The position numbers were made by a program, and so were the translations under genes. From a virus: a DNA stretch of 55,105 nt. The stretch is taken from UHGV virus genome UHGV-0308106, one strand, 5' to 3'. The notes below the pieces were generated by a model. The model made no database searches and was not told the origin of the DNA. It saw nothing but the letters and a program-made list of their open reading frames with translations. Below are positions 27,130 to 50,170 of this stretch, in pieces (the stretch's first letter is position 1; each line of letters begins with the position of its first letter).

Positions 27130-27206
27130 ATGCCCAAAGCTAACCGGAATGCGTTTTTTTTTATTCAAATCATATATAATCATATCGAATATATACGGAG
27201 GTTTTT

Positions 27207-27558: not shown

Positions 27559-27918
27559 TTACGCTGCCGCATCATCTGAATTGAATTCAATGTGAATTCG
27601 GTCATAAGGCAGCACGATTTTTTCGCCGTCTTTGTCCAGAACGCCGCCGTTAAGCAGTGACTGAACATCGTTATAAACACCGCGAAAATCACGGTTAACA
27701 ATGCGTGATAGTTCGCGGATTGATACGGCTTGCGCTCCCTCCATCGCTTTGATGATCTGCCAGCGGTTAGGGGCAAGCATAGTTTTAGCCAGTTGTTCTA
27801 CAGTGGGAAAAATCAGTTCGGAACCGATGAAATCCCCGTTCATTGCGCGGGAGGCGTCGGACATTGCCACCCGGAAAGCATCATCAACGGTCATTACTCT
27901 GACGGTCAGCACTCGCAT
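27559..27918 (-). CDS. winged-HTH protein (antitoxin/regulator-like)
   Basis: 119-aa ORF, GGAGG SD, 4-bp gap after upstream 93-aa gene; HTH-like AVSIRELSRIVNRDFRGVYNDV. Confidence 0.5.
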   Translation of the reverse strand: MRVLTVRVMTVDDAFRVAMSDASRAMNGDFIGSELIFPTVEQLAKTMLAPNRWQIIKAMEGAQAVSIRELSRIVNRDFRGVYNDVQSLLNGGVLDKDGEKIVLPYDRIHIEFNSDDAAA

Positions 27919-27922
27919 GGTA

Positions 27923-28204
27923 TTACCTCCTCAACAGGTTTATGTCAGCCTGAAAGCTGGCGATCAGGTTCTCAATGGTGGTGAATGTCACCGGATATTC
28001 CCGATCATGGATGTGTTTGTGGTCGCCTTTGCCACGTTCGTTGTCGTAACGCATGACGCACTCGCCATCTACGATGTAGGCCAGACTGTACTTGTATTGG
28101 TGCTGGCTACCTAAAATTGCCGGGTCTACTTCCAGAATGCGGATCGAGGCGAAAGCGTTATCAGCTATCTGGATACGGCGGTTCATCAACTCAACAGCGG
28201 GCAT
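27923..28204 (-). CDS. small protein (toxin-like partner, family not recognised)
   Basis: 93-aa ORF, AAGGAG SD, operator palindromes immediately upstream. Confidence 0.45.
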   Translation of the reverse strand: MPAVELMNRRIQIADNAFASIRILEVDPAILGSQHQYKYSLAYIVDGECVMRYDNERGKGDHKHIHDREYPVTFTTIENLIASFQADINLLRR

Positions 28205-28220
28205 TGGCTTATCTCCTTGT

Positions 28221-28270
28221 TGATGTAAATAATAACATCACAAACGAATGATGTAAATGATTACATCATT
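28221..28270. promoter_or_regulatory. inverted-repeat operators upstream of two-gene cassette
   Basis: tgatgt-aaataata-acatca (28221-28240) and aatgatgtaa-atga-ttacatcatt (28247-28270). Confidence 0.45.
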
Positions 28271-28412
28271 GCGGGTAAGTTACCGATGGCATGAACGGTT
28301 CGCTGCTGGTGGCTCTCGATCTCCTGAAAGCTCAGGATATTGCCGGGCATGATTTTAATCGGCGGACTTTTCGGCCGATTGAATACGGGCAGTTCGCTCC
28401 CTGTGTATCGGC

Positions 28413-28552
28413 TTCGTTTCTGGATGATTCGCGTTTCGTTTCTGGTGAATTCGCATTCGCAATTTGTCCGCGAAGCCTTATCAGGCCTGATTTGAGCGGT
28501 GCTCTCTCTTTGCGAATTCGCAGTTCCATTTCGCACTTTGATTCGCAGTTTT
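28413..28552. repeat. cluster of palindromic GAATTCGC/GATTCGC motifs
   Basis: Tandem 20-mers ttcgtttctggatgattcgc (28413-28432) and ttcgtttctggtgaattcgc (28435-28454); further gcgaattcgca and gattcgca copies to 28552; overlapping ORFs look non-coding. Confidence 0.4.
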
Positions 28553-28713
28553 CAAATGTTCCCATTCCGGGGACACGGACGATTAGACAGGTGTTACAAA
28601 CGTTGGTGGTGAAATATCTTCTTGCGCTGGCGGGCACGGTGTGGTTATGATTATTTCGCACCTCACAAAACGGGTGCCGGGCGTGAGAACCCGGATAAGG
28701 TCAAAGGCGACAA

Positions 28714-28737
28714 CAGACGCCTATCGCGTCTTTTTTT
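28714..28737 (+). terminator. intrinsic terminator in leader upstream of icd-like gene
   Basis: agacgc-ctatc-gcgtct stem followed by tttttttt. Confidence 0.4.
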
Positions 28738-28931
28738 TGTCGCAATGTCAGTACCCCCATATGTAGCGGCGCAGATCCGCGCACAGAATCAATGGTGGCT
28801 CTGGCAGGGCAGCTTTCGGGCTGGCCGGTTCCCTTTGACGCCGGTATTCTCACCCCTGTCAGTGTCACCACCCTTTAGAGCGTGAGAACTCAGGTGGTGG
28901 CTCCTTAAATTAGTCAAAGGAGATCATCATC

Positions 28932-29129
28932 ATGATGACTATCCCTACCCTCGCTCAAACAAAATTCACCTGGCGCTTTCTCGCGCTGAATCGCCACGAT
29001 AAAAAAGCCAAACCTTGCCGTCTGTCCGTTGAGGCTGCGACCGAACGCGAAGCCCGCCGCATCCTTGCGCCGCACTTTATTTTGTCTCTGGCCGCACGTC
29101 TGCCAGTGCCGGAGGTGCGTCATGTTTAA
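28932..29129 (+). CDS. Icd-like small protein (P4 family)
   Basis: 65-aa; KFTWRFLALNRHD...RLSVEAATEREARRILAPHFILSLAARLP resembles Icd/Ash proteins as recalled. Confidence 0.45.
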   Translation: MMTIPTLAQTKFTWRFLALNRHDKKAKPCRLSVEAATEREARRILAPHFILSLAARLPVPEVRHV

Positions 29130-30000
29130 CCTCCAGACACTGACAGCTAAAGCCCGTGAGCTGCGCGGCAACGTCGTTAAAGCGGCGAGCACAAAGGGAA
29201 GTCGCACCATGACTCCTGTCTATGACCGTGACGAGCAGCGCAAGCTACGCGAGCGCATCCAGCAGACACAGCCCGATTGGGTGTTGCTCTGGTGGGATAT
29301 TGCGACCGTAACCGGCTGGCGTACCAGCGACGTTTGCAACCTGCGCTATTCCTGCGTCAATTGGGAAACGGGGCAGGCGACAATTATCGTTGCCAAGCAG
29401 ACCAAAGCCGCCGAAGCGCGGGCAACCCGCAAAGGTATTGAAATTGTGCGCCAGCAGCGCAAGGACGCCGCGCGGCTCGCCGCTGACCATATCGCCTACA
29501 TGAAGTGGGATAGTATCGGTTGTGACGAACTGGCCGCCGATATGAACGACGAGGAACAGGCGATTGTGTTCGGGCTGGTGGCAAAGGCTGACGTCAAGCA
29601 CGACACCAAACAGTTACCGCCCGGCATTATCAAGCGGCTGCGTGACCGTCAGGATCGGAATCTGGTGGAGGACGACCTGGTATTTTCACGCTCTCAAATC
29701 GAAAGTAACCGTTGTCAACGTCTGGAAGGTAGCGTTACTCGCCAAACCATCTGGCGCAAACTTCATGGCGTCATGGCGTGGTTTACCCGTTTCATTAACG
29801 CTAAATTGCGCCTGAGCGCGTACTCAAGCCGAAAAATAGCAGCCTTTAATCTTATGTCCGCAGGTGGCGAACAGGGATTATTGGTGGCTTCTGAAATGCT
29901 GGGGCATAGCAACCCGGCGATAACTCGCACTTACCTTCAATTAGGCAGCAAAGCCGCCGCTATCCAGTCCCGTTTAGCAATGGAGGTGTGCCATGCGTAA
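29122..30000 (+). CDS. tyrosine recombinase-like protein (catalytic domain only)
   Basis: 292-aa from ATG 29122 (GGAGG SD); WDIATVTGWRTSDVCNL and C-terminal LGHSNPAITRTYLQ; no N-terminal core-binding domain. Confidence 0.55.
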   Translation: MFNLQTLTAKARELRGNVVKAASTKGSRTMTPVYDRDEQRKLRERIQQTQPDWVLLWWDIATVTGWRTSDVCNLRYSCVNWETGQATIIVAKQTKAAEARATRKGIEIVRQQRKDAARLAADHIAYMKWDSIGCDELAADMNDEEQAIVFGLVAKADVKHDTKQLPPGIIKRLRDRQDRNLVEDDLVFSRSQIESNRCQRLEGSVTRQTIWRKLHGVMAWFTRFINAKLRLSAYSSRKIAAFNLMSAGGEQGLLVASEMLGHSNPAITRTYLQLGSKAAAIQSRLAMEVCHA

Positions 30001-30172
30001 TCTCTTTCATATCACTGGCTACGCCGTCAATAAACGCGGCCTGACAGTCGGTTTTAGCTATCTCATCGACGCCGAGGACGCCATGCAGGCAAAAGTTAAT
30101 GCCATTGCTGAGGCGAAAGACGATGAACTCACCCACGTATCTATTGCCCGTATTCTGGAGGTGGCAGCATGA
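29993..30172 (+). CDS. hypothetical small protein
   Basis: 59-aa ORF not in track; GGAGG SD; coupled to neighbours. Confidence 0.35.
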   Translation: MRNLFHITGYAVNKRGLTVGFSYLIDAEDAMQAKVNAIAEAKDDELTHVSIARILEVAA

Positions 30173-30381
30173 GCAAAGTATCCCTGGCCGATTCAACCTG
30201 CCGTATCCAACAGGCGCAGGAAGTCCTGTCTCTCTGGCTTGAGGCGACGAATAAAAACGATAGCGGCACGGCTAAATTAATCGGCGCAATCATTTCCCTT
30301 CTGGATGGTATCCCCGAATTGATGGATTCAGTAGAGGATGAATTGGCTGGCATGGACTTAAAAGCGATGGATAAAGCATGA
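30169..30381 (+). CDS. hypothetical protein
   Basis: 70-aa ORF, ATGA coupling on both sides. Confidence 0.4.
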   Translation: MSKVSLADSTCRIQQAQEVLSLWLEATNKNDSGTAKLIGAIISLLDGIPELMDSVEDELAGMDLKAMDKA

Positions 30382-31004
30382 GCAACGTAGAGAAATTCAC
30401 ACCGGGAAATGCCGACTTATTACACGCCGAAGCCACACCGCACGGCGTAAACATCATGACCCGCAATGATGCCGGGATGTATGAGCATGTAGCCATTATC
30501 ACCTATGAGAGCGCTGTAAGCCGTCTGGATGCGGGAGAGTACGACGATACGCCAGATATCGGCTACGCCATTCATTTTGCCGTTGCTGATGGCGGGGCGC
30601 GTGGCTGGTTCGACTTTACCGCGCAGCATGAAGTAACCATGTGGCGCTGGCTGATTGCTGCGACGTTCGTTTCTGAGATGAAGCGCGAAAACGGCACAAC
30701 CTCCGTCACGGAGGCTGACGGCACAACATCGCAGGTGGCGATTTACTCCAATGGTAATGCGGGCATGGTGATTTACCCGTTTGCTGAACGGCTGGCGATG
30801 GCGAACAACATCGAGGGCGCAATGATTGAGCGATACGGCGTCGAACAGGGTACGGAAAAAGCCATTGTGTTTTATCAGGCCATGCTGGATACGGAGCGCG
30901 GCGAGCTTACCCCGTTCGGACGTGAAACGCTGGCAGAGCTACACGATCACTTCATTGCTGATCTGGATGAAAACGGCTGGCCTGAAATGCCAGCGGCGCA
31001 CTGA
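30378..31004 (+). CDS. hypothetical protein
   Basis: 208-aa ORF upstream of primase in same operon. Confidence 0.45.
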   Translation: MSNVEKFTPGNADLLHAEATPHGVNIMTRNDAGMYEHVAIITYESAVSRLDAGEYDDTPDIGYAIHFAVADGGARGWFDFTAQHEVTMWRWLIAATFVSEMKRENGTTSVTEADGTTSQVAIYSNGNAGMVIYPFAERLAMANNIEGAMIERYGVEQGTEKAIVFYQAMLDTERGELTPFGRETLAELHDHFIADLDENGWPEMPAAH

Positions 31005-31016
31005 GGGAGCGACACA

Positions 31017-33797
31017 ATGCGTAATATCGACCTTATCCGCGAAGTGACCAGCGCCGCAGCAGGGCGCTGGCCTTATGTGCTGGCTGGGTTGTCTATCGAC
31101 GTGCCTGATTCATCGCGCCGCCATTCTCCATGCCCTGCATGTGGTGGAAAAGACCGTTTCAGATTCGACGACAACGGGCGCGGTAGCTTTATCTGCAACC
31201 AGTGTGGCGCTGGTGACGGGCTGGATTTAATCAAGCGGGTTAACAACTGCGACACTACGGAGGCGGCACAGCTTGCCGCTGACGTGCTGGGTATTGATTA
31301 CCGGGCAGCGCAATCCGACCCGGTGGCAGCGAGCCATATAAGGGAGCAACTGGAAGCTGACCGCCAGCAGCGTGAGCAGGAGCGCCAGAAACAGGCAGCA
31401 GGGGACGCAGAGCAGCGAAGGGCTACGTTTGCCCGTCTGTATGCCGGAATGCGCCAGAGTGCCACACAGGGCGAATCTGATTACCTGCAATCAAAAGGGC
31501 TGACCGGGTTTAACTATCCGGTTATGCCTGATGGTTCGTTATTGCTGGAGCTGGTGGACGAATCCGGCGCAGTGGCAGCAGCGCAAACCATTACACCGCA
31601 GGGAGAGAAGCGACTCCTGACAGGTTCAGCAAAGCGCGGGGCATATCACGCCGTAAACGCGCCAGAATCGCCGCAGAGCGTTTTAATTGCCGAGGGGCTG
31701 GCGACGGCCCTTTCAGTTCACCTGATGCGCCCGGACGCGCTGGCAGTGGCAGCAATTGACGCGGGCAACCTGCTACCCGTTGCCGAAGTGATGCGCCGGA
31801 AGTACCCACAGGCACAAATCATCATTGCCGCAGATAACGACCAGATGGGCGAAAGTGACGGAATTAAAGGAGTGAAAGTTAACACTGGCAAGGAGGCCGC
31901 AGAGAAAGCCGCGAAAGCCGTTTCTGGCTGGGTTTCCATGCCACCAGTGGACTATAAAGCGGACTGGAACGACTACCACCAGCAATACGGCCTCGAAGCG
32001 GCCACAGCAGCATTTAACGACTCAATGTATCAACCGGAGGGTAAGAAAGTGGGTGCGACACTGACAGCTATCGACGGCGGCAAGAAAAAACTTGGTATCG
32101 ACGACGATCTGAAACCGCGAGTAGAGAGCCGTGCGGATGGCATTCACTGGATCACCCCGAAAGTGGACAAAGACACAGGAGAAATTATCAATACCGAGGC
32201 GTGGCTATGCTCTCCGCTGGAGATTGCTGGTGCGGGGAGTGATAACGCCAGACAGCGCTTTCTGATCCTGCGTTGGGACGTCCCCGGCAACCGGGGGCAA
32301 GTTACCCGTGCGCTTCCATGGGAGGACATTGGCGACCGTGAGGGATGGCGCACGCTGAAAAACGGCGGTGTCAGTGTGACAACCAAACCATCGTTGCGGG
32401 CAATTCTGGCCGACTGGCTGCAGCGAACTGGTAGCGGCAAGGAATGGCAGATCAGCCACACCACAGGCTGGCACAACGGGGCGTACATCATGCCGGATGG
32501 TGATGTTATTGGTGAGCCAGAGATACCGCTGTTATTCAGTGGTCGGAGTGCGGCGGCTGGTGGCTATACCGTCAGTGGAACGCCGGAAAGCTGGCGTGAT
32601 TCGGTGGCGCGTCTTGCGCTGGGAAACCCGTCAATGATGCTGGGCGTTGCTGCTGCGCTTTCTGCGCCGCTGATCGGGCTTGTTGGCGCTGACGGGTTCG
32701 GCGTGCATCTTTTCGAGCAGTCCAGCGCAGGGAAGACAACCACCGCCAACATTGCCAGCAGTTTATACGGTGAACCGGATGCCTTGCGCCTTACCTGGTA
32801 CGGTACAGCGCTGGGTATCGCCAACGAAGCGGAAGCGCATAACGACAGCCTGTTACCGCTGGATGAAGTGGGGCAGGGCAGTAGCGCCAAAGACGTTGCT
32901 ACGTCTGCTTACACGCTGTTTAACGGTGCCGGAAAGCTACAGGGGGCCAAGGAGGGCGGCAACCGTGAGTTAAAGCGCTGGCGCACCGTGGCGATCAGTA
33001 CCGGGGAAATGGACATTGAGACGTTTCTTTCTGCTGGTGGGCTGAAAGTTAAGGCCGGGCAACTGGTGCGATTGCTTAATTTACCGATGGAGAAATCAGT
33101 AACGCACCATGAGTACCAGAACGGGAAGCAACACGCCGACGCACTCAAAGAGGCTTACCAGACGAACCACGGAGCCGCAGGCCGTGAATGGATTAAATGG
33201 CTTGCAGGCCACCAGCAGGAGGCAAAACAAGCTGTCAGGGCGGCGCAAGAGCGCTGGCGCAGTCTTATCCCCGCTGATTATGGCGAACAGGTTCATCGTG
33301 TCGGTGAGCGGTTCGCCATTCTGGAGGCGGCGCTGGTGCTGGGGATGCCTGTCACTGGTTGGGGGGAGCAGGAAAGTCGGGACGCTATCCAGCATGGCTT
33401 TAATGCTTGGGTAAAAGAGTTTGGCACGGGGAACCGTGAGCATAAGCAGATCATCGAGCAGGCAGAGGCGTTTCTTAATGCCTACGGCATGAGCCGTTTC
33501 GCGCCGTTCCCGTATAGCCCGGCTGACATGCCGATCCGGGATTTAGCCGGATACCGTCAGAAAGGTGAGCATGACGAAAGCCCCGTAGTGTTCTACACCT
33601 TTCCGGCTGCGTTCGAAAAGGAGATAGCGCAGGGCTTTAATGCGAAACAGTTTGCCCGTGTGCTGGCCGGGGCTGGGGTACTGAAACCGCCAGCCAGCGG
33701 AAGGGGATATCAGCGTAAATCCCCGCGAATTGATGGACGCCAGATAAACGTTTATGTGCTCCAGCTACGACCCGACGAGATAGAGGGCGAAGAATAA
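31017..33797 (+). CDS. primase-helicase (P4 alpha-like)
   Basis: 926-aa; zinc ribbon CPACGG...CNQCG; TOPRIM-like AEGLATALSVH and IIAADNDQ; P-loop-like SSAGKTT. Confidence 0.9.
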   Translation: MRNIDLIREVTSAAAGRWPYVLAGLSIDVPDSSRRHSPCPACGGKDRFRFDDNGRGSFICNQCGAGDGLDLIKRVNNCDTTEAAQLAADVLGIDYRAAQSDPVAASHIREQLEADRQQREQERQKQAAGDAEQRRATFARLYAGMRQSATQGESDYLQSKGLTGFNYPVMPDGSLLLELVDESGAVAAAQTITPQGEKRLLTGSAKRGAYHAVNAPESPQSVLIAEGLATALSVHLMRPDALAVAAIDAGNLLPVAEVMRRKYPQAQIIIAADNDQMGESDGIKGVKVNTGKEAAEKAAKAVSGWVSMPPVDYKADWNDYHQQYGLEAATAAFNDSMYQPEGKKVGATLTAIDGGKKKLGIDDDLKPRVESRADGIHWITPKVDKDTGEIINTEAWLCSPLEIAGAGSDNARQRFLILRWDVPGNRGQVTRALPWEDIGDREGWRTLKNGGVSVTTKPSLRAILADWLQRTGSGKEWQISHTTGWHNGAYIMPDGDVIGEPEIPLLFSGRSAAAGGYTVSGTPESWRDSVARLALGNPSMMLGVAAALSAPLIGLVGADGFGVHLFEQSSAGKTTTANIASSLYGEPDALRLTWYGTALGIANEAEAHNDSLLPLDEVGQGSSAKDVATSAYTLFNGAGKLQGAKEGGNRELKRWRTVAISTGEMDIETFLSAGGLKVKAGQLVRLLNLPMEKSVTHHEYQNGKQHADALKEAYQTNHGAAGREWIKWLAGHQQEAKQAVRAAQERWRSLIPADYGEQVHRVGERFAILEAALVLGMPVTGWGEQESRDAIQHGFNAWVKEFGTGNREHKQIIEQAEAFLNAYGMSRFAPFPYSPADMPIRDLAGYRQKGEHDESPVVFYTFPAAFEKEIAQGFNAKQFARVLAGAGVLKPPASGRGYQRKSPRIDGRQINVYVLQLRPDEIEGEE

Positions 33798-33811
33798 AAC
33801 ACACATACGAG

Positions 33812-34104
33812 ATGTTTTTTTGTTGGTTCAGTTGGTTCAGTAACTATTTAATTAAGATAAGTATATGTATTTAATATATTTCTATACCCATAAGTGAACC
33901 AACACTGAACCAACAAATACCCATTTTGAACCAACAAATGCCGCTATTGAACCAACGCCCTTTTCTGGCTGGCCTGTAAATCTTTCCCACTGAACCAACA
34001 CGAAAATAGCGTTTGTTGGTTCAAAACAAGGCTTTGTTGGTTCACTCCTCAAGAAATAATCCTTACAAAACAACAATCTTTACAAATTGAACCAACTGAA
34101 CCAA
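33812..34104. repeat. iteron array / candidate origin of replication
   Basis: 12 copies of GAACCAAC in both orientations (e.g. 33812, 33821, 33886, 33897, 33918, 33939, 33982, 34005, 34026, 34079, 34088, 34097) flanking an AT-rich tract 33830-33880. Confidence 0.65.
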
Positions 34105-34397
34105 CTGAACCAACATGTTTTTGTTTATCTATAGAGTTTTTTCGGAGAGTAATTACGAATTTGGAGGGGCATCGCCTAAGCGACAGTATGCGGAAACGGC
34201 AACTTTGCGGAGCGGAAAAGAAAAAGCCCGCGCTGGAGAGGCGAGGGCTTTTGTTAACCATGTTTATGCAATCACACAATGGTGGATCACCGTCATAGTA
34301 CCACGTCGATTTATCATTTCAATGTACGCAATGATGTTTACTAATATTGCAATTTATGCAATGATCAGAATTTAAACAACGCAAAAGGTTATGAACA

Positions 34398-34961
34398 ATG
34401 AAACAGATAACCAATGTTAATCTGGAAAGTGATAACGCTGGTGGTACAGTCGAGGTGACTTACTCCGATGATACGTTCGAAAGGCTGACCTGTTCGCTGC
34501 CTGTGGCTCTCGTCATTGCGAACCTTGCAACGACGCTTAAGCAGGAACGTGCAACACGCATTGCAACCGGCGACCGCCTGCGCCGGATGTATACCCGCGA
34601 TAGTGACATGATTACCCGCAGCGGCAGCGGCGCTTCTACGACCTCCACCGCGCCAACGTCAATGGACGCTGAATTTATGCGCCTGGTACGCGCTGTAGCA
34701 CCAAAGTATGACAACGCCCTTCCTGATACCGATCCTCGCCTTGTTGCGCTTGATGTGCTGCGTTACGCACCCGCTGAGGCATTCAGTGCGGTACACCCGA
34801 CCCCGCTATCAGAGATTCAGCTTGATCAGGCTATCGACGTTCTGGAACAGGTTGGCGACTACATGCGAGTTAACAACGTTTCACCGAAGATTCTCACCAC
34901 AGGCGACGCCATTCGCAGCATTAACACCGACAACGCCAGTTTCTGGCATCGCACGAAGTAA
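34398..34961 (+). CDS. hypothetical protein with scaffold-like C-terminal motif
   Basis: 187-aa; C-terminus TTGDAIRSINTDNASFWHRTK resembles helper 24387-25619 C-terminus. Confidence 0.5.
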   Translation: MKQITNVNLESDNAGGTVEVTYSDDTFERLTCSLPVALVIANLATTLKQERATRIATGDRLRRMYTRDSDMITRSGSGASTTSTAPTSMDAEFMRLVRAVAPKYDNALPDTDPRLVALDVLRYAPAEAFSAVHPTPLSEIQLDQAIDVLEQVGDYMRVNNVSPKILTTGDAIRSINTDNASFWHRTK

Positions 34962-34967
34962 GGAGCA

Positions 34968-35162
34968 ATGAGCATGGCTATTTATGACCCGAAATTAGCA
35001 GCAGGAAACCCGCAAAGCGCCGGGCGTAAACTCTTTGGCCGTGAACAGGCCGAGCAATTGCGGATGCGTAACAACTTCAACAACGAATGCCGCAATCTGG
35101 AAAAAGTCAACGAAGCGAATGCAAAGTTCTGGAGTGAACAGGATGAAAAAGCCAAACGTTAA
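34968..35162 (+). CDS. hypothetical small protein
   Basis: 64-aa; contains NAKFW near C-terminus. Confidence 0.4.
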   Translation: MSMAIYDPKLAAGNPQSAGRKLFGREQAEQLRMRNNFNNECRNLEKVNEANAKFWSEQDEKAKR

Positions 35163-35310
35163 GCCGGTATTACTCTCTGGCGACCAGTTCGCCGCAATCT
35201 GCAAGATCCAGGAGCGCGAACGCCAGCGCTCCGATATTGGCGTAGCGCCGTCTGTCCATCAAATTGCCCGTGGGCTGGTGGCGAAAGCGCTGGCATCAAT
35301 TCAGGAATAA
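35143..35310 (+). CDS. hypothetical small protein
   Basis: 55-aa from ATG 35143 with GGAG SD. Confidence 0.3.
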   Translation: MKKPNVKPVLLSGDQFAAICKIQERERQRSDIGVAPSVHQIARGLVAKALASIQE

Positions 35311-35315
35311 CGACT

Positions 35316-36383
35316 ATGTCATATAACTGGATGCGCCATTTCGAGCTACAGCTCATCGATGAGAATGGCAAAGGAATTAGCCTTAGTGATTTCAAAGTTA
35401 CCTTTGATATAGAGCGTAACGATAACAAATGGCCAGCTGTTGCGACGGTCAAGATCTACAACCTTTCACCAACTACTCAGAACCGTATTATGCAACGTGA
35501 GTTTGCCAAAATTGTGTTGATAGCGGGGTATGATGGTCGTGCGCAGGATGTAAGGGCAAGTGATGTGGGGATTGCACGTGAAATATCAGCAAGCGAAGTG
35601 GGCCAGGCTAACGGCGCAAACTACGGAGTCATTTTCAGCGGTGATATCCGCTTCACTGTGACCGGAAAAGATAACCCTGTCGATTCATGGGTACAGGTGC
35701 AGGCTTGTGACTCTGTGGAGGCGTTTACCAGCGCATTTATCAACACCACTATCAGCAAAGGCTACACCACAGAAGATATTTATGTTGAGCTTATGAAAAG
35801 GCTGGAACCTTACGGCATTTCTCGCGGTATTGTTCCTGAATTCCCGGCAACGGTATTTCCTCGCGGTCGAGCCCTCTTTGGCTATGTCCATAACTATCTC
35901 GATGAAGTGGCCGCGCAGTGCAAAGCCACTTGGCAATTCAACTATGGAAAAGTCGATATTGTTCCCAGAGACAAGGCCACTCATGAAGCTGTGGTTCTCA
36001 ACGCTAATACCGGGCTTATCGGTATGCCTCAGCAGACCATCGGTGCGGGTGTGAATGTCAAATGCCTGATTAACTCACGGATTCACCTGAACGGGCTTAT
36101 CCAACTGGATCAGGCTTCGGTATATCGTAGCGCCTTATCTGCGGATCAAATTGCCCAAGCTGGTGGGCCAATTTCGGTGGAAAGCCAAAACGGAAACCTT
36201 GTCACTACTGGATTAACGCAGAGTCCGGCGAGCATTGCTACCGATGGTATCTATAAGGTTCGGTATATCAGTTACACGGGCGACACGCGCGGTCAAGCGT
36301 GGTATATGGATCTGGCGTGTGAGGCTCGCGGGAATTCTGATTTATTTTCAAGTTCATTTATGAATAAGCAGAGTGAAGAATGA
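35316..36383 (+). CDS. baseplate hub-like protein (paralog of 47472-48536)
   Basis: 355-aa; about 70 percent identical by eye to helper hub-like protein (MSYNWMRHFELQLID vs MSLNWMRHFELQLLD). Confidence 0.5.
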   Translation: MSYNWMRHFELQLIDENGKGISLSDFKVTFDIERNDNKWPAVATVKIYNLSPTTQNRIMQREFAKIVLIAGYDGRAQDVRASDVGIAREISASEVGQANGANYGVIFSGDIRFTVTGKDNPVDSWVQVQACDSVEAFTSAFINTTISKGYTTEDIYVELMKRLEPYGISRGIVPEFPATVFPRGRALFGYVHNYLDEVAAQCKATWQFNYGKVDIVPRDKATHEAVVLNANTGLIGMPQQTIGAGVNVKCLINSRIHLNGLIQLDQASVYRSALSADQIAQAGGPISVESQNGNLVTTGLTQSPASIATDGIYKVRYISYTGDTRGQAWYMDLACEARGNSDLFSSSFMNKQSEE

Positions 36384-36724
36384 AGAAGATTATTTTACTG
36401 ATTGGTTTATTGGGCGCATCTGGAAGTCATGCTGCGCAGGTTATTACCATGCAGTGCGGAAACTTTCGCTTTGAGATGATAGAAAACTCGATGGCGAGAA
36501 TTAATGGTGAGTATGTAACATCTCAGAAAATTACAGAGTTCGGACAGAACGGGGCAAAAGTAGAAATGACGCTTATGCCTGCCAGCGATGGGAATCTGTA
36601 TGGGTTTGAATACATCCATCCTGACGGTAGCAAAAAGCGCTGGCTGAATGTTGAGCTTATCCGCACCAATATGAATCAGGCGCGGATCATTGGCTCGTTT
36701 GATTGTAAGCGCGTGAAGGGGTAA
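36380..36724 (+). CDS. secreted small protein (paralog of 48549-48893)
   Basis: 114-aa; signal peptide MKKIILLIGLLGASGSHA; two Cys; shared C-terminal DCRKVK. Confidence 0.5.
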   Translation: MKKIILLIGLLGASGSHAAQVITMQCGNFRFEMIENSMARINGEYVTSQKITEFGQNGAKVEMTLMPASDGNLYGFEYIHPDGSKKRWLNVELIRTNMNQARIIGSFDCKRVKG

Positions 36725-36732
36725 GGGGAATC

Positions 36733-37395
36733 ATGCCATTCATTCGACCCGCAAATGAGCAGGATGTAACACAGCTTGTTCAGGACAATGCTAAAGCATC
36801 TGTAACCAATGCGTTACCTGGCATTATTCGTTCGTTCGATCCCGAAACTGTCACCTGCGATGTTGATATAGCCATTACGGCAAGAATGACGAAGGCTGGC
36901 ACAATGGGTGAAGATTTCCAGTATGAGTCCGTCCGCTATCCGATTCTTAACGATTTGCCTGTGGTTTTTCCGCGCGGGGGCGGAGTTACGCTTACTTTCC
37001 CGGTTAAAGATGGTGATGAATGCCTCATCGTATTCTCTTCGCGTTCGATTGATTTCTGGTGGCAGAACGGCGGTGTGCAGGAGCGAGCTGATGGGCGTAT
37101 TTTAGATCTGTCTGATGCGTTCGTTATTCCTGGCCCCCAATCACAGGTAAAGAAGATATCCAATATCAGTACCAACGCTGCGCAGCTGCGTACAGATGAT
37201 GGAGCGGCATTTGTAGAGGTGTCCGCTGGTGGAGCCATTACTATTACCAGCTCTCAAATCACCCTTAACGGGCCCGTGCAGGTAAACGGAACGATCACTT
37301 CCACTGGCGACCAAACGGCCAACGGTATCAGCCAGATTAACCATACCCACGGCGGCGTACAATCAGGCGGCAGCAACACAGGAAAACCACAATGA
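36733..37395 (+). CDS. baseplate spike protein gpV-like (paralog of 49430-50170)
   Basis: 220-aa; PGIIRSFDPETVTC, FPRGGG, C-terminal HTHGGVQSGG; about 65 percent identical to helper gpV. Confidence 0.7.
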   Translation: MPFIRPANEQDVTQLVQDNAKASVTNALPGIIRSFDPETVTCDVDIAITARMTKAGTMGEDFQYESVRYPILNDLPVVFPRGGGVTLTFPVKDGDECLIVFSSRSIDFWWQNGGVQERADGRILDLSDAFVIPGPQSQVKKISNISTNAAQLRTDDGAAFVEVSAGGAITITSSQITLNGPVQVNGTITSTGDQTANGISQINHTHGGVQSGGSNTGKPQ

Positions 37396-37571
37396 GCAAT
37401 ATTGAAAAACTGAAACCAGAAGAAAGCGGATCCAGCCAGAATGGTAAGGTTCGTACCTGGCTGGATGATATCAACGGGCAGCCGGAACCAGATGGTATTG
37501 GCAGCTTCGGTGAGAGTGCGATCTGCGAAGAATCACGCACAGCGGAAACCATGCGAAATAACGTAGGGTGA
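37392..37571 (+). CDS. hypothetical small protein
   Basis: 59-aa ORF, ATGA overlap with gpV-like stop. Confidence 0.3.
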   Translation: MSNIEKLKPEESGSSQNGKVRTWLDDINGQPEPDGIGSFGESAICEESRTAETMRNNVG

Positions 37572-37599
37572 CGGTCAGATGACGTGATCTGTAACTTTA

Positions 37600-37647
37600 A
37601 GTAGCGGTGCAGGGGCAGAACTCAGCACGCTACTTTTATTTTCTTTG
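37600..37647 (+). terminator. intrinsic terminator upstream of orphan small-terminase paralog
   Basis: agtagcggtgc...gcacgctact stem with one bulge, followed by tttattttctttg. Confidence 0.5.
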
Positions 37648-37661
37648 TCAAAAGGTGAACA

Positions 37662-38135
37662 ATGGCGGCATTACCAACAATGGCTAAGGTTATGATTATT
37701 CAATCATTAGCTTGCTACGAACCCCCTTCCAGAATCGTTGAGCTTGTAAAACAAGATTTTGGCATCGTCGTTACCCGGCAGCAGATATCGGCCTACAACC
37801 CTGAAAATACAATGGCAAAAAATCTTAGCCAAAAATGGGTAGAACTCTTTAATCACACTCGCGCCCGCTTCCAGAGTGAAATATCCGAGATCCCTATCGC
37901 TAACAAAGCGTACCGGCTGCGTATGCTCGATCGCATGGCTAACCGTGCAGAGGCAATCAAGAATTACGCATTAACAGCGCAGCTTATTGAACAGGCCGCG
38001 AAAGAGTGCGGGGACGCTTACACCAACAAATTAAAGGTTGAAACAACGGGTAAAGATGGTGGTCCGATCAGAACGGAAACAACGAACTTAACCGCCGAAG
38101 AAGCCGGGGAGGCATACCGCAAATTTATGGGATAA
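37662..38135 (+). CDS. small terminase paralog (orphan)
   Basis: 157-aa; same length as 19876-20349 product, C-terminal half nearly identical; no large terminase or portal follows. Confidence 0.5.
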   Translation: MAALPTMAKVMIIQSLACYEPPSRIVELVKQDFGIVVTRQQISAYNPENTMAKNLSQKWVELFNHTRARFQSEISEIPIANKAYRLRMLDRMANRAEAIKNYALTAQLIEQAAKECGDAYTNKLKVETTGKDGGPIRTETTNLTAEEAGEAYRKFMG

Positions 38136-38366: not shown

Positions 38367-38849
38367 ATGCCTGTTGGCATTGCCGGGGCTATCTCTCGCC
38401 CGCAGGACTTAACCGTCGAACCGGTGATCCTTAAATCCGCTAACGCCTTCGCTGCCTATGGTCTGGCTGGCAAATATGACGCTGACGGCTTTTTCGTGCC
38501 GCTGGCGGACGGTGACACCGCCGACAAGGTGAAGGGGATCTACGTTCGTCCGTATCCGACCACATCGCAGCCAGACATGGTTCGCCAGGTGGGGACGGAT
38601 AAGAACTTCCCGGGTGACGCCATGAAGCGTGGCTACATGACCGTTAATCTCGGTTCTGATTTTGATGCCAGCACCATCAAAAAAGGCGACCCGGTATACG
38701 TTGTCGTCTCCACTGATGAATCCATAAAAGTGCCGCTGGGCGGCTTCATGTCCACGTCCGTCAGTGGCAAAAACGTGGCGCTGACCAACGCCGAATTCAC
38801 AGGGGCCGGTGACGCTAACGGCAATGTAGAAATCTCCTGGAAGATTTAA
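38367..38849 (+). CDS. head protein (decoration or scaffold-like), hypothetical
   Basis: 160-aa ORF directly upstream of major capsid gene. Confidence 0.4.
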   Translation: MPVGIAGAISRPQDLTVEPVILKSANAFAAYGLAGKYDADGFFVPLADGDTADKVKGIYVRPYPTTSQPDMVRQVGTDKNFPGDAMKRGYMTVNLGSDFDASTIKKGDPVYVVVSTDESIKVPLGGFMSTSVSGKNVALTNAEFTGAGDANGNVEISWKI

Positions 38850-44292: not shown

Positions 44293-46560
44293 ATGAGCGG
44301 TAACGCAGATACGATTAAAGACTTCCTTGTTTCGCTGGGATTCGATATCGATCAGGCTGGCGCTAATAAGTTTGAAGCCGTGCTGAAAGGCGTTACCGCA
44401 AACGTTCTGAAGGTCGGCGCGGTGGTGGAAGGCGCAGCGCTGAGCATTGTCGGATTTACCACCCAGATCGCGAATGGTCTGGATAAAATTTACTGGGCAT
44501 CCCAACGGACGGGGGCCAGCGTCCAGGGCATCAAAGCGCTGGGCTATGCCGCGTCGCAAACCGGTGCCAGCGCCGAGTCGGCCATGTCCTCCCTCGAAGG
44601 GCTGGCCGGTTTCATGCGTAGCAATCCGGGGGCGGAAGGCTTCCTGAACCGTCTTGGTGTCCAGACCCGAGATGCCAGCGGAAAGATGCGTGATACTGCG
44701 GCCATCTTTACTGGCGTTGGGCAAAAGCTCAACAACATGCCGTATTACCGCGCGAAGCAATACGCGCAGATGCTTGGCATCGATGAAAACACGCTGATGG
44801 CGATGCGGCGCGGCATGAATGGCTTTACCGCCGATTACCAGTCTATGCTGCAAAAGACTGGGTTCAACGCTGATAAGGCGGCTGTGCAGTCCAATAAATT
44901 CATGACGTCCATGCGCGGGCTTACGTCGCTGTTCGGCATTATGCGGGACAAGATCGGCTCAAACCTCGCTGGTGGTCTTGCTGGTTCGCTGGACAGCCTG
45001 CGGCGGCGCATCCTCGACAACTTCCCGAAGATTGAAGAGACGCTGACCAGAGTTATTAAAGGCGTGATCTGGCTTGCGAACGCCTTCACGCGAATGGCGT
45101 GGCGGCTCATACAGGGCGCTGGCTCTGTCATTGACTGGTGGAAGCGTCTTGACGATGGCAGTAAAAATCTGCTGAAAATATTCGGTGCTCTACTTGTCGC
45201 ATGGCGTCTGCTTAATTCTGCGTTCCTGAAATCCCCGATTGGAATTATCACCACGCTGATTCTGGCGATCGGATTACTCTATGACGATTATCAGACGTGG
45301 AAAGAAGGCGGTAAAAGCCTGATTGACTGGTCCAAGTGGGAGCCTGCAATAGAAAAGGCGAAAAAGGCAATTCTCTGGCTGCGCGATAAGCTTCTGGGGC
45401 TGAAAGATTCTGTTGGTGGATGGCAGAACTCGCTGGAAATTTTGGCTACTTTCATCGCTGGGGTATGGGTAACAAAAGTATTGGGAGCATTCGCAAAAAT
45501 ATCCGGTCTTCCGATACCTCCATGGCTTAAATTATGGGGAGCGTATGCTGGTTACCTGGTTTCAGATCGTGAAAACATAAAAGCCAGTGCTAAATCATCT
45601 TTGGACTATACCAAAAGGAACATTGGTGATGCTCTTGCTACGGTTGGCATCAAAACCGACCTTGGGCGAAAAGATGTTAGCGAGGTAAGAGAATGGCCCG
45701 CATGGATGGATTGGCTGCATGGTGGCCCAGGTAAGATTATTCGTCAGGCGCAAAGCAATGGCGTCGTTTATGGCGATAATGTTCAGCCTGACATTCCCGG
45801 GGCGGAACAGCATGTTCGTAGTAATGAAATTGCCCCGCATGAAAGAGATGAAATAAAAAACCGTCAGCAGGCTGCTAATGGTTATCTTGAAAAAATCTCA
45901 GACGGGATTGCCAAAATCGGTAATTTATTTTTCTCCCCGGCTGGAGCTGCTGAAATCTCTCCAAATATATCGGGTGACCCCTCCCAGTTTGCGCAATCAG
46001 TCAAACGTCCACAGGCCACAGCCCAGGGCAAAGTATTGCTCGACTGGATGGGGCCAATGTTCAATAAACTTGAGTCGCTTTATCAACTTCCAGCTGGTCT
46101 ATTGAAAAGTGTGGCGATAACCGAGTCAGGTGGTAACCAGTTCGCCATGTCCGGCGCGGGTGCAAAGGGGCTGTTCCAGTTCATGGATGGCACGGCGCGA
46201 GACATGGGCCTGCGTGGTAACGATGTGTTCGACCCGGAAAAGTCAGCTCAGGCAGCCGCTAAGTACCTTAGCCAGCTATTGCGGCAGAACGGCGGAGACC
46301 TTAGCAAAGCACTTGCATCATATAACTGGGGAATCGGGAACGTTCAACGTTATGGAATGGGGCTAATGCCGCAGGAAACGCGCAATTACATTCCGAAAGT
46401 AATGAGCAATATGCCCACCAGCGCCCCGGTGATTCAGCAGGAAACGAACATTAACATCCACGGCGTTTCCGATCCTCGCGAAGCTGCCCGTTTGACTGTT
46501 GACCGTCAAAAGGGTGTGAATTCACAGTTAACCCAGCAACTCCCCGCAGGACCGAGATAA
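44293..46560 (+). CDS. tail tape measure protein with C-terminal lytic transglycosylase domain
   Basis: 755-aa; hydrophobic central segments; SLT-like ITESGGNQFAMSGAGAKGLFQFMDGTARDMGL...ASYNWGIGN. Confidence 0.8.
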   Translation: MSGNADTIKDFLVSLGFDIDQAGANKFEAVLKGVTANVLKVGAVVEGAALSIVGFTTQIANGLDKIYWASQRTGASVQGIKALGYAASQTGASAESAMSSLEGLAGFMRSNPGAEGFLNRLGVQTRDASGKMRDTAAIFTGVGQKLNNMPYYRAKQYAQMLGIDENTLMAMRRGMNGFTADYQSMLQKTGFNADKAAVQSNKFMTSMRGLTSLFGIMRDKIGSNLAGGLAGSLDSLRRRILDNFPKIEETLTRVIKGVIWLANAFTRMAWRLIQGAGSVIDWWKRLDDGSKNLLKIFGALLVAWRLLNSAFLKSPIGIITTLILAIGLLYDDYQTWKEGGKSLIDWSKWEPAIEKAKKAILWLRDKLLGLKDSVGGWQNSLEILATFIAGVWVTKVLGAFAKISGLPIPPWLKLWGAYAGYLVSDRENIKASAKSSLDYTKRNIGDALATVGIKTDLGRKDVSEVREWPAWMDWLHGGPGKIIRQAQSNGVVYGDNVQPDIPGAEQHVRSNEIAPHERDEIKNRQQAANGYLEKISDGIAKIGNLFFSPAGAAEISPNISGDPSQFAQSVKRPQATAQGKVLLDWMGPMFNKLESLYQLPAGLLKSVAITESGGNQFAMSGAGAKGLFQFMDGTARDMGLRGNDVFDPEKSAQAAAKYLSQLLRQNGGDLSKALASYNWGIGNVQRYGMGLMPQETRNYIPKVMSNMPTSAPVIQQETNINIHGVSDPREAARLTVDRQKGVNSQLTQQLPAGPR

Positions 46561-47471: not shown

Positions 47472-48536
47472 ATGTCTCTTAACTGGATGCGCCATTTTGA
47501 GTTGCAGCTGTTGGACCAGAACGGGCAGGGTATTTCCCTGTCTGATTTTAAGGTCACGTTCCAGATCGAGTGGGCAGATACACGCTGGCCGCGCGTGGCA
47601 AACGTGAAAATTTACAACCTTTCGACCGATACCACGAACAAGATACTGGGGCAGGAGTTTGCAAAAATTCGCATCATTGCCGGGTATGACGGTATTGCGC
47701 CGGATGTTGATGCGAGCCAGGTTGGTGTCGCCCGGGAGATTTCACCAGACCAGGTAGGGCAGGTGAACGGTCAGAACTACGGCCTGATATTTGACGGTGA
47801 TATTCGCTTCACCGTCACCGGGAAGGACAACATCACCGATTCCTGGGTGCTGATTCAGGCCATCAGTAACCACGAAGCGTTCCTCTACGCGACTACCATC
47901 ACCACGCTTGCCGCTGGCTATACCGTTGCGGATCTGCACCGGGCGACGATGCAGGATTTCAACGCGTTCGGCGTGACACAGGGCATTACCGGCGATTTTC
48001 CTGATACCGTGTTTCCTCGTGGCCGCGCGATTTACTCATCCAGCCGCAACGTGATGGATAATATTGCTGCGCAGTGCAAAGCGACATGGCAACTGGTGGA
48101 TGGTCAGGTCCAGATGGTGCCGGAGGATAAATATATTCACGAAGCCATTGTGTTGAATGCCAATACTGGCCTGATCGGTATGCCGCAACAAACGATGGGC
48201 GGCGGAGTAAACGTGCGGTGCCTGATAAACCCAAACATCCGTATTAATGGTCTTATCCAGCTCGATCAGGCTTCGGTGTACCGCGCCACGCTCGGCAATA
48301 GCGAAATAGCACAGTCGCCCGGGCGTATCACCGAAACAGAAGAGAACGGCAACCGTGTGCTGACCGGCACGACGTCACAGGCTGCCAGCATTGCGACGGA
48401 TGGCGTTTATATCGTCAAAGCTATCGACTATACTGGCGACACCAGAGGTCAGGCGTGGTACATGGATTTGATGTGTTTTGCGCGTGGCGCTCGTGATCTT
48501 TATAGCCCGAAAGCAATGCAAGGGACGACGAATTAG
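47472..48536 (+). CDS. baseplate hub-like protein
   Basis: 354-aa; position before gpV-like spike, as Mu gp44; paralog in nested element. Confidence 0.5.
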   Translation: MSLNWMRHFELQLLDQNGQGISLSDFKVTFQIEWADTRWPRVANVKIYNLSTDTTNKILGQEFAKIRIIAGYDGIAPDVDASQVGVAREISPDQVGQVNGQNYGLIFDGDIRFTVTGKDNITDSWVLIQAISNHEAFLYATTITTLAAGYTVADLHRATMQDFNAFGVTQGITGDFPDTVFPRGRAIYSSSRNVMDNIAAQCKATWQLVDGQVQMVPEDKYIHEAIVLNANTGLIGMPQQTMGGGVNVRCLINPNIRINGLIQLDQASVYRATLGNSEIAQSPGRITETEENGNRVLTGTTSQAASIATDGVYIVKAIDYTGDTRGQAWYMDLMCFARGARDLYSPKAMQGTTN

Positions 48537-48548
48537 TGAGGTGGGGCC

Positions 48549-48893
48549 GTGAGACATTTACTTTGCACTGTTACCGTGTTCGCGGTGCTTATATCAGCAC
48601 CCGCTTTTGCGGATCAGCAATGTGGTGATTTTAAAATCCATTGGGCAGATGATGGCTTAGCCAGAATCAATGGCGCAAAGCCAGAAATGCAAAAAATCAC
48701 CTTCCTGAAAAACAAAGGCGATTATAACAATATCAAGATGGATTGGCGTATGGCTACCGATCAGCCTGGAAGATGGGTTGGTCTTGAGTACATCAATCGA
48801 AACGGCAAAGCCATTCTCAACGCACAGTGGTTGCAAGCCAGCATGGATTCGCCGCGTCAGTATGCAACATACGACTGCCGAAAAGTAAAATAG
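48549..48893 (+). CDS. secreted small protein
   Basis: 114-aa; signal peptide MRHLLCTVTVFAVLISAPAFA; two Cys; C-terminal DCRKVK. Confidence 0.5.
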   Translation: MRHLLCTVTVFAVLISAPAFADQQCGDFKIHWADDGLARINGAKPEMQKITFLKNKGDYNNIKMDWRMATDQPGRWVGLEYINRNGKAILNAQWLQASMDSPRQYATYDCRKVK

Positions 48894-48916
48894 CCCGCCA
48901 GATAGGCGGGCATGCG

Positions 48917-49207
48917 TCAAAAATATTGAGCTTTAATTATAATAAACACAATAATTACGAACAGGATGTTTCTAATTATTTTTTGCTTATGAGTAAGTTG
49001 TTTTTTTTCTGTCGATTTCCCGGGAGAGTAAAGGTTAGTGGTATGCGACAGCCCCGTGCCGGGAAGGCCATTTGTCATCTTTACGCCTTTTTTCCCGATG
49101 TTAATGGTGGAACCTTTACCACCAATTGAAGTGCTTACTCCGCTTTTACTAATGTTGATCGCGAGTCCGGGCGCAATCCGGATTCTTTTACGAAATCTAA
49201 ATCCCAT
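48917..49207 (-). CDS. DUF4236-like protein (antisense moron)
   Basis: 96-aa; RIAPGLAINISKSGVSTSIGGKGSTINIGKKG; C-terminal TM; AT-rich; hairpin terminator at 48895-48912. Confidence 0.45.
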   Translation of the reverse strand: MGFRFRKRIRIAPGLAINISKSGVSTSIGGKGSTINIGKKGVKMTNGLPGTGLSHTTNLYSPGKSTEKKQLTHKQKIIRNILFVIIVFIIIKAQYF

Positions 49208-49429
49208 TTGTTACTCCTGTAGTCAATAATGCGATGGTGCAGGTCCACTCTATGGCGGCTTCATGGCTGAAATTGATTTTCAATGCTTACTTGTTGCAAA
49301 CATATCCTAATACACCTTGTGAATGTGTGCCATTGCAGCGGAAAAGCCTTACTTCACACTGATGTAGCTTAGTTACTAAGAGATAATTGATACCAAACCA
49401 GCTTCGGCTGGTTTTTTTATGGGGGTTTT

Positions 49430-50170
49430 ATGCCAATTCCAACTCAATCACAGATCGGCGGTGAGCAGCAGACCGCGCAGGCCATTGCCGATTCGGTGTC
49501 GACCCAGATGCGCGTAGCGATGCCCGGCATCATTCAGTCGTTCGATCCTGAGACTGTTACCTGCACAGTAGAGGTGGCGCTACGCGGTATTGTTGGCGAT
49601 GGATCCACCGAATTAAAACCGCTGGTGGATGTGCCGGTCATCTTCCCGCGCGGCGGCGGTTGCACGCTGACCTTTCCGGTAAAAGAAGGCGACGAGTGCC
49701 TCCTGATTTTTGCTGACCGTTGCATCGATTTTTGGTGGCAGAGCGGCGGCGTTCAGGAGACCGTCGACCCGCGCCAGCATGACTTATCTGATGCGTTCGC
49801 CATCGTTGGCCCGCAGTCGCAAGCACGGAAAATCAGCGGTATCAGTACCAGCGCCGCGCAGCTGCGAACCGATGATGGTGCGGCGTTTGTAGAAGTCGCC
49901 GCAGGACATAACATCACCATTAAAACACCGGGCCAGCTTACAGCTACGGCTGAAGGTGGAACGACAATCACATCCCCGACTATCACGCTGAACGGCAACG
50001 TAACGATTAATGGCAACTTGTCTCAGGGAATGGGCGAAAGCGGCGGTACTGCGACGATGCTTGGGCCGGTGACGGTAACGAATGACGTAACAGCTTCTGG
50101 TATCAGTGTCGCCACGCATAAACATGGCGGAGTACAGACTGGCGGGGGAACTACCGGAGGGCCGCAATAA
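49430..50170 (+). CDS. baseplate spike protein gpV-like
   Basis: 246-aa; FPRGGG, C-terminal THKHGGVQTGG; followed by W/J/I-like genes. Confidence 0.75.
   Translation: MPIPTQSQIGGEQQTAQAIADSVSTQMRVAMPGIIQSFDPETVTCTVEVALRGIVGDGSTELKPLVDVPVIFPRGGGCTLTFPVKEGDECLLIFADRCIDFWWQSGGVQETVDPRQHDLSDAFAIVGPQSQARKISGISTSAAQLRTDDGAAFVEVAAGHNITIKTPGQLTATAEGGTTITSPTITLNGNVTINGNLSQGMGESGGTATMLGPVTVTNDVTASGISVATHKHGGVQTGGGTTGGPQ

Follow-up and report, generated by a model that had tools for sequence, protein, structure and literature searches.

Some phages guard infected cells against their own kind with small envelope proteins. The T5 protein Llp, for example, is small and periplasmic, has a disulfide linking its termini, and is encoded by a neighbor of the tail-tip gene (PMC9586334). 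Together with the Cor lipoproteins of T1/phi80-like phages, Llp is the closest described counterpart of the gene family analyzed here, termed X, which we studied in the virus genome UHGV-0308106. The whole 55,105-nucleotide (nt) stretch of this genome is called the window, and coordinates refer to it unless another locus is named. X denotes the gene for a small, predicted exported protein that follows the baseplate hub gene; the window contains two copies, X_H in a helper prophage and X_S in a satellite of the phage-inducible chromosomal island (PICI) type that is embedded in this prophage. We tentatively propose, at a probability of roughly 0.4, that X is a periplasmic entry-exclusion (superinfection-exclusion) factor matched to the hub/spike/tape-measure tip of the phage tail.

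Llp and Cor are small, are exported to the periplasmic side, have one disulfide tying their ends together, and are made against the phage's own kind; X is predicted or proposed to resemble them in these respects, its disulfide being putative. They are encoded directly beside the tail-tip gene that they block, and X stands beside the hub gene rather than a gene for a receptor-binding protein. The two groups differ in that the X copies of the window have a signal peptidase I site without a lipobox Cys, only certain fused variants being of the lipidated type, and in that mature X comprises ~90 amino acids (aa) modeled as an eight-stranded barrel. No sequence similarity of X to Llp or Cor was found with PHROG, Pfam, or NCBIfam. 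Another periplasmic protein, T4 Spackle (gp61.3), inhibits the tail-spike lysozyme (PMC7677548). As proposed for X, Spackle is a periplasmic phage protein that neutralizes a hub or spike component of the incoming tail; in contrast to X, which is all-beta and late, it is helical, is encoded by an early gene not adjoining gene 5, and acts on a lysozyme domain. The prophage envelope exclusion proteins HK97 gp15 and TP-J34 Ltp act on tape-measure-dependent entry. The HK97 gp15 gene lies in the tail region, and lipoprotein variants of X carry a tape-measure-like loop; nevertheless, gp15 resides in the inner membrane, Ltp is a helical-repeat lipoprotein, and neither is homologous to X. Cumby et al. 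2012 is cited in PMC11364771.

The X family is already catalogued as phrog_3443, an Enterobacterales phage family annotated as "unknown function," and the type of satellite that carries X_S has been published. Literature searches on baseplate genes in satellites, on exclusion factors of the periplasm, and on the phages named here found no characterization of X. The searchable literature likewise yielded no account of the cassette structure, the hub-end arrays, the tape-measure-like fusion, the terminator pattern, or the satellite hub-X-spike cassette described below.

A small protein fixed behind the baseplate hub

A sequence-only reading of the window had singled out a 114-aa protein directly after the hub gene in both helper and satellite, and its coordinates proved exact (Table 1). 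X_H and X_S are 31% identical over 113 residues (E value of 2e-16). Because both match phrog_3443 end to end (X_H, E value of 6.9e-46, residues 2-114; X_S, E value of 6.3e-40, residues 9-113), their similarity lies far above chance. The hub-like nature of the upstream neighbors was borne out as well: both belong to phrog_196, with a weak match to PF22759 (E217 gp41), and both copies have a spike gene with the Apex motif downstream. X_H begins with a GTG codon 12 nt after the hub stop, with a Shine-Dalgarno sequence (GAGGTGG) 5-6 nt upstream of the start. The ATG of X_S overlaps the satellite hub stop (ATGA), and the satellite spike gene begins 8 nt past the X_S stop. X is translationally coupled to the hub.

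The presence of a signal peptide was judged in 83 family members by sequence rules, namely, a basic n-region, a hydrophobic h-region, and small residues at positions −3 and −1. All 83 have a hydrophobic 10-mer near the N terminus (mean Kyte-Doolittle value of 2.7) and a small-residue −3/−1 site ahead of the first conserved Cys, and 80 have a basic n-region. The predicted signal peptide of X_H spans residues 1-21 (48549-48611), with cleavage between AFA and DQ; the predicted site of X_S lies between SHA and AQ. X is accordingly predicted to be a Sec-exported periplasmic protein of the signal peptidase I type, in line with the secretion claimed in the sequence-only reading, and variants with a lipobox exist. 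That reading had also counted two Cys residues, which is correct for the mature part of every one of the 83 members (exactly two), but the X_H precursor has a third, Cys6, in its signal peptide. The C-terminal DCRKVK that it described as shared holds as the common pattern DC[RK][KR]VK; the strings themselves differ, being YDCRKVK in the helper and FDCKRVKG in the satellite. Since X is exported according to these predictions, its absence from virions would be expected and would not count against a role in excluding infection.

In the alignment of the 83 members, Cys25, N41, G78, and N91 are invariant, and Cys110 is present in at least 90%. Structure prediction, which had been suggested as a check, gave an all-beta, generic barrel of eight strands (AlphaFold model; predicted local distance difference test [pLDDT] score of 87) for which no informative structural relative was found. 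In this model, Cys25 lies on the first strand and Cys110 on the last, which makes a barrel-closing disulfide plausible, and a Cys25-Cys110 bond probably closes the barrel. Avidin and streptavidin were also compared with the eight-stranded X barrel, and a PDB sequence search with X returned only avidin matches at chance level. Neither X_H nor X_S matched any entry in Pfam, NCBIfam, or PADLOC, and PHROG contained no match outside phrog_3443. A profile search against 1.84 billion representative sequences delimited a narrow family of 71 clusters, essentially all from Enterobacterales.

We surveyed the surroundings of X in 27 loci from species-representative genomes and 160 IMG/VR loci, together with annotated phage and Escherichia coli records. 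In all ~190 loci in which upstream sequence was present, X lay directly 3′ of the hub or of a 3′ remnant of the hub. The gene order in phages is tape measure protein (TMP), Dit, plug, hub, X, 0 to 1.4 kb of variable cargo, spike, gpW, and gpJ. One decayed prophage (L023) has kept only a 105-aa 3′ fragment of the hub and an intact X (positions 2448-3100 of that locus), and at another locus (L106, positions 9515-10279) an insertion that carries an integrase has cut the hub short, with X persisting downstream of the remnant. The hub fragment and X of L023 are located near a 695-aa Lon-like gene.

The order in satellites, of which 22-30 were compared, is (TMP)-(Dit)-(plug)-hub-X-spike-(TerS), where TerS is the small terminase subunit, parentheses mark genes present in some of them, and the gap between X and spike is at most 11 nt. 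Most satellites carry X without a TMP gene. X in a satellite could be a mere passenger that was captured by lying between hub and spike: helper late genes are known to be taken up as contiguous blocks into the late zones of PICIs (PMC10111431), and X is inside the captured block. Several observations stand against this explanation, which we regard as highly improbable. All 22-30 satellite cassettes retain X, whereas the adjoining moron region and its terminator are gone. The ratio of nonsynonymous to synonymous substitution rates (dN/dS) among satellite X copies is 0.15. Furthermore, the mean identity of X in satellites (70%) exceeds that of the hub (65%) and of the spike N-domain (54%), the reverse of the ranking seen in phages.

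A place in the virion or in its assembly would also tie X to the hub. X could act as a chaperone or plug at the hub-spike junction, or it could mature in the periplasm and attach to the hub tail of finished particles only once the cell has lysed. X is part of the baseplate operon, its gene abutting or overlapping that of the hub, and no member of the lineage lacks it. Satellites retain X between hub and spike, where it is the best-conserved protein of the cassette, and X and the hub tail are perfectly coinherited. On the other hand, the signal peptide, the conserved Cys pair, and the lipoprotein variants would place X outside the cytoplasm, where tails are assembled. The neighboring baseplate genes all match solved E217/Pam3 families, but X has no counterpart among the baseplate chains of these structures. 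The four to seven diverged copies found in arrays (see below) would make no sense for a stoichiometric component, and decayed prophages keep X without a functional hub. Taken with these objections, a structural or assembly role appears improbable; a virion part matured in the periplasm would be unusual among tailed phages.

Allelic cassettes, arrays, and fused variants

The core of an allelic cassette is formed by the hub tail, the intergenic ribosome-binding site (RBS), and the start of X through codon ~39, signal peptide included; over this core, the window shows nothing alignable at the DNA level with phages that are 98-99% identical to it in the flanks. The remainder of X shares 76-78% identity with four loci in which the 5′ part is unalignable (L088, L084, L095, and L009), the flanks of which are 90-99% identical to those of the window; the comparison with L088 is detailed in Table 1. 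In phage pairs with hubs at least 97% identical and spike N-domains ~98% identical, the median identity of X is 78% and the minimum is 63%, and the last 20 hub residues of such same-hub pairs are 53% identical. Clustering at ~90% identity resolved 33 X alleles, each paired with its own type of hub tail, and these pairings recur across genera. X proteins that are at least 95% identical come with hub tails at least 83% identical, and tails at least 90% identical come with X proteins at least 88% identical. Variation within X peaks in the first hairpin (residues 27-38), and the mean column entropy is 0.94 for residues 25-64 versus 0.50 for residues 65-114. Among phages, the median dS of X is 0.96, compared with 0.26 for the hub, and the dN/dS of X is 0.14, which, like the value for satellites, denotes purifying selection. 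These values indicate alleles that far predate their flanks and are maintained rather than decaying. Phages may swap the hub tail together with the 5′ part of X through recombination at the conserved flanks. X also covaries with Dit, plug, hub, and the spike N-domain (rho of 0.7-0.8), a correlation that reflects linkage within the inner-baseplate module and so cannot prove interaction.

Several copies of X occur in about 6 of the ~190 loci. A locus of Serratia aquatilis (L015) contains seven copies between hub and spike (positions 5394-10282), including one pseudogene, and an insertion sequence transposase has inserted there; the C-terminal halves of these copies are almost identical, while their N-terminal hairpins are diverse. 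Four copies are present in L010 (identical to L100; positions 629-2849) and in L102 (positions 6505-8725), both from Pseudescherichia vulneris, each copy being preceded by an orphan fragment of ~66 hub 3′ codons with its own tail. L102 has a further hub-X pair downstream of gpJ (11707-13083), and three more loci hold two or three copies. No promoters or terminators were found inside the arrays, and a single terminator lies ahead of the spike. By analogy, this layout is the architecture of orphan immunity cassettes. In contact-dependent inhibition (CDI) and Rhs loci, arrays of orphan toxin tips and immunity genes likewise combine a conserved body, a short variable C terminus, a small variable neighbor, and displaced copies, and the four units of L010 and L102, each a 5′-truncated hub fragment plus an X variant, have this form. 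The likeness is architectural only, since the variable hub end measures ~15 residues, forms no domain, and bears no sign of toxicity.

Lipoprotein versions of X were found at the X position in L016 and L112 and in the database proteins P0166 and P0193. They consist of a lipobox (LSGC in P0166 and LVSC in P0193; L016 and L112 have one too), an additional domain of ~190 aa, and the X domain. The existence of such versions at the same locus supports an envelope location for X. Within their N-domain, one segment is homologous to the tape-measure loop DDYQTWKEGGKSLIDWS. An unbiased scan of PHROG with this domain gave, as the best match other than X, the tape-measure family phrog_3824 (E value of 5e-5), to which the TMP of the window belongs (E value of 3e-59). 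BLASTP aligned residues 48-67 of P0166 with TMP residues 328-347 (14 of 20 identical, E value of 1e-5), and hhalign matched four fusion N-domains to a TMP alignment over 40 columns with a probability of 94% (E value of 1.6e-7). The hydrophobic TMP segments that flank the loop motif probably enter the membrane at ejection. A BLASTP hint (E value of 0.038) that the N-domain might be a degenerate SLT domain was ruled out by hhalign (probability of 3.5%).

The helper TMP ends in an SLT transglycosylase domain (PF01464, E value of 1e-24), and X could be a periplasmic inhibitor of this domain, comparable to T4 Spackle or to Ivy/MliC, that shields the wall of the infected or lysogenic cell from incoming particles. 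X is predicted to be periplasmic and to form an eight-stranded barrel, a general fold class shared by MliC and PliC. A precedent is provided by Spackle (PMC7677548, PMC7650644). Against this role, X has no Pfam match at an E value of ≤1 and hence none to MliC/PliC or Ivy. Most satellites with X lack a TMP gene, and, as described above, the SLT-like similarity of the lipoprotein N-domain was rejected. Moreover, X alleles do not track the C-terminal 200 residues of TMP: pairs that are at least 97% identical in this region have a median X identity of 78%, and pairs at least 97% identical in X fall to 44% in it. Inhibition of the transglycosylase therefore seems unlikely. X as a lysozyme inhibitor of the MliC/PliC, Ivy, or PliG kind was unsupported by profiles, by fold ranking, and by covariation with the TMP C terminus.

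Transcription signals and a candidate role in exclusion

An intrinsic terminator directly upstream of the spike RBS was detected in 115 of 122 unique phage loci, compared with 0 of 22 satellites and 24 of 141 control stretches. As the helper encodes a Q antiterminator, this terminator would stop only transcripts without Q modification. A terminator that Q-modified transcripts bypass is the classic moron layout of lambdoid phages, and with the terminator ahead of the spike and Q in the phage, X is arranged as a unit of the moron type. The promoter side is less distinct. The candidate sigma-70 promoter listed in Table 1 is a consensus match that does not exceed chance and is of use as a lead only. 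It lies in a block at the 3′ end of the hub that is conserved even at synonymous sites, and its −10 element is formed by a rare Thr codon, ACT, which phage lineages conserve and satellites do not. Promoter scans around X_H, X_S, and the arrays gave no excess over shuffled sequences, and neither the satellite nor the arrays yielded a consensus match. As for the marks of a moron, then, the downstream terminator is present, and there is one promoter consensus match, the count of which is not above that in shuffles.

X might instead serve lysogenic conversion as a moron, or lysis or the envelope as an accessory, with a host envelope target unrelated to phage entry (for instance, in serum resistance, envelope stress, or lysis timing) for which the hub junction simply served as an insertion hot spot. 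The hub-spike junction does receive unrelated cargo: the slot is occupied by a DUF4236 gene in the window, by Phd/Doc in E. coli ABWA45, and by unrelated open reading frames (ORFs) in SEN34, Mulock, and vB_EcoM-683R1. The unit ends in a terminator, and X is predicted to be exported. Unlike the other cargo, however, X is universal and always first after the hub, and satellites that lost the moron region with its terminator kept X. Dozens of old alleles in backbones ~99% identical point to a variable partner on the phage side and not to a conserved host target, and the tape-measure-like segment of the lipoprotein variants is likewise at odds with a host target. We consider a moron unrelated to phage entry rather doubtful.

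The exclusion reading that we favor would work as follows. X would be made together with the tail genes, exported through Sec, and folded in the periplasm into a small beta-barrel with a disulfide between the first and last strands. There it would intercept the tip of an incoming phage of like kind, be it the hub tail, the spike, or the tape-measure loop, or else the host partner of this tip, so that membrane penetration or DNA delivery would fail. The variable first hairpin (residues 27-38 and vicinity) would set the specificity, some phages would keep several X variants in tandem to widen exclusion, and the satellite would retain a hub-X-spike set of its own. We favor this reading because X is exported by prediction and fixed behind the hub, because its old alleles are swapped with the hub tail, and because of the arrays, the lipoprotein variants with their tape-measure-like segment, and the retention of X in satellites. 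Also in its favor are the lack of any match of X to a known structural family, the terminator layout, the persistence of X beside decayed or truncated hubs, and the precedents of Llp and Spackle.

Other points weigh against it. The reading has no support from homology. No promoter of its own rose above chance in our scans, and expression of X in the lysogen is putative. X is located in a late operon and is translationally coupled to the hub, as an assembly factor would be. It is universal in its lineage, whereas typical exclusion morons are sporadic, and arrays are rare. The functional link to the hub that the sequence-only reading had suggested is in keeping with adjacency across the survey, coupling, linkage to the hub tail, and satellite retention; adjacency alone, however, can explain the linkage between hub tail and X.

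A more specific form of the exclusion reading would be a lock-and-key pair. In the SXT/R391 integrative and conjugative elements (ICEs), the transfer machine contains a short stretch that varies and that has a likewise variable exclusion protein as its partner (TraG/Eex). By analogy, the variable hairpin of resident X would trap incoming tips with a matching C-terminal hub tail; phages would escape by swapping tail and X together and would stockpile old variants, and helper-embedded satellites, which must enter cells already harboring the helper prophage, would use their own hub-X-spike set to build particles that slip past the X of the helper and would exclude rival satellites with their own X. 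The likeness to TraG/Eex is architectural, and the pairing of hub tail and X amounts to linkage. We hold this elaboration to be unlikely as a whole.

If X is an exclusion factor, it would represent a widespread and so far unrecognized specificity system deciding which related phages and satellites enter lysogens of Escherichia, Salmonella, Klebsiella, Serratia, and their relatives, and it would explain why a whole satellite lineage carries its own hub and spike genes. It would also add one more infection barrier readable from sequence, of interest for phage therapy and prophage ecology. The catalogue of 33 alleles and the natural arrays offer ready-made material for swaps.

The helper prophage and its embedded satellite

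The helper is the prophage of a temperate myophage, and its regulation is lambda-like (Table 1). Profile matches assign its tail to the E217/Pam3 type, with a cement protein, a Dit-like protein, a plug of the Pam3 gp18 type, hub, spike, and a gpJ-like wedge. Its relatives include Salmonella phage SEN34 (Brunovirus), Klebsiella phage Mulock, and many enterobacterial prophages.

Table 1. Positions of the X genes, their neighbors, and other features in the window
Feature	Position	Strand	Remarks
X_H	48549..48893	+	Helper; 114 aa; phrog_3443
X_S	36380..36724	+	Satellite late zone; 114 aa; paralogue of X_H
Helper baseplate hub gene	47472..48536	+	354 aa; phrog_196
Last ~15 codons of helper hub, ARDLYSPKAMQGTTN	48489-48533	+	Within the variable cassette
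Satellite baseplate hub gene	35316..36383	+	355 aa; 63% identical to helper hub
Helper central spike gene	49430..50170	+	N-terminal spike-family domain PF18352; GpV Apex motif PF18946
Satellite central spike gene	36733..37395	+	Apex motif; 52% identical to helper spike
Allelic cassette core	48497..48665	+	Hub tail, intergenic RBS, X signal peptide, first ~39 X codons
X 3′ two-thirds	48666..48891	+	Alignable between alleles
Window vs L088, hub body	up to 48496		99% identity
Window vs L088, hub tail to ~X codon 39	48497-48665		Nothing alignable
Window vs L088, remainder of X	48666-48891		78% identity
Window vs L088, moron region	48892-49406		No identity
Window vs L088, spike onward	from 49407		98% identity
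TMP loop motif LLYDDYQTWKEGGKSLIDWS	45274..45333	+	TMP residues 328-347, between hydrophobic segments
Candidate sigma-70 promoter TTTATA-17-TATACT	48406..48434	+	Consensus match, not above chance; lead only
Variable moron region, X to spike	48892..49406	none	DUF4236 gene and its terminator here
DUF4236 gene in hub-spike moron slot	48917..49207	-	Own terminator hairpin, 48911->48893
Intrinsic terminator	49395..49414	+	Directly upstream of spike RBS
Embedded PICI-type satellite	~25834..38135	+	In helper head module; carries X_S
Satellite integrase (tyrosine recombinase)	25834..27063
AlpA-like gene	27207..27419		Satellite; 20.5 bits, just under the Pfam cutoff of 21
TumE toxin gene (PF20126, E value of 7.5e-16) and HVO_A0114-type partner (PF25212, E value of 1e-18)	27559-28204	-	Satellite
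Icd-like ORF	28932..29129		Satellite
Second tyrosine recombinase	29029..30000		Satellite
Toprim/DUF927 primase	31017..33797		Satellite
TGAACCAACA-type iterated repeats (iterons)	33901-34115		Just downstream of satellite primase gene
DUF2280 TerS	37662-38135		157 aa; satellite end
DUF2280 protein	19876-20349		157 aa; before helper large terminase gene
CI-type repressor	9109..9504		Helper regulation
Q antiterminator	15263..16045		Helper regulation
RecT gene (372 aa) and RecE-like exonuclease VIII/PDDEXK gene (1129 aa)	2216-6729	-	Helper early region

The satellite is flanked by two helper genes, the DUF2213 head gene (24387..25619) on one side and the cement gene (38367..38849) on the other. That the two X copies belong to a helper and a satellite, as the sequence-only reading had stated, agrees with the integrase, AlpA-like gene, primase, iterons, and TerS of its own that the inserted element contains. 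The TGAACCAACA-type repeats probably mark its replication origin. Its DUF2280 protein is 64% identical to that of the helper, and the satellite apparently brings its own small terminase. A search for direct repeats that could serve as satellite att sites yielded no convincing pair.

Tommasini, Mageeney and Williams 2023 (PMC10111431) described helper-embedded PICIs (HE-PICIs) that carry captured late genes. The satellite with X_S shares with them the integrase, AlpA-like gene, primase, and late zone and likewise lies within the late region of its helper; the main text of PMC10111431 contains zero mentions of hub, spike, or baseplate, and the hub-X-spike(-TerS) cassette is not described there. 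The same PICI backbone occupies the same place in two other E. coli strains, in ABWA45 (L004) with other late-zone cargo, a "peptidase M41 family" gene (27833-28552 of that locus), and in EC2001 (L005) with Dit-plug-hub-X-spike-TerS. E. coli G5 (L006) has a related element with hub-X-spike-TerS that is not part of a prophage and adjoins a CP4-like island.

The TumE gene and its HVO_A0114-type partner, by their profile matches, form a predicted toxin-antitoxin pair of the satellite. The early region of the helper encodes RecT and a RecE-like exonuclease, a gene set that is ordinary in lambdoid phages.

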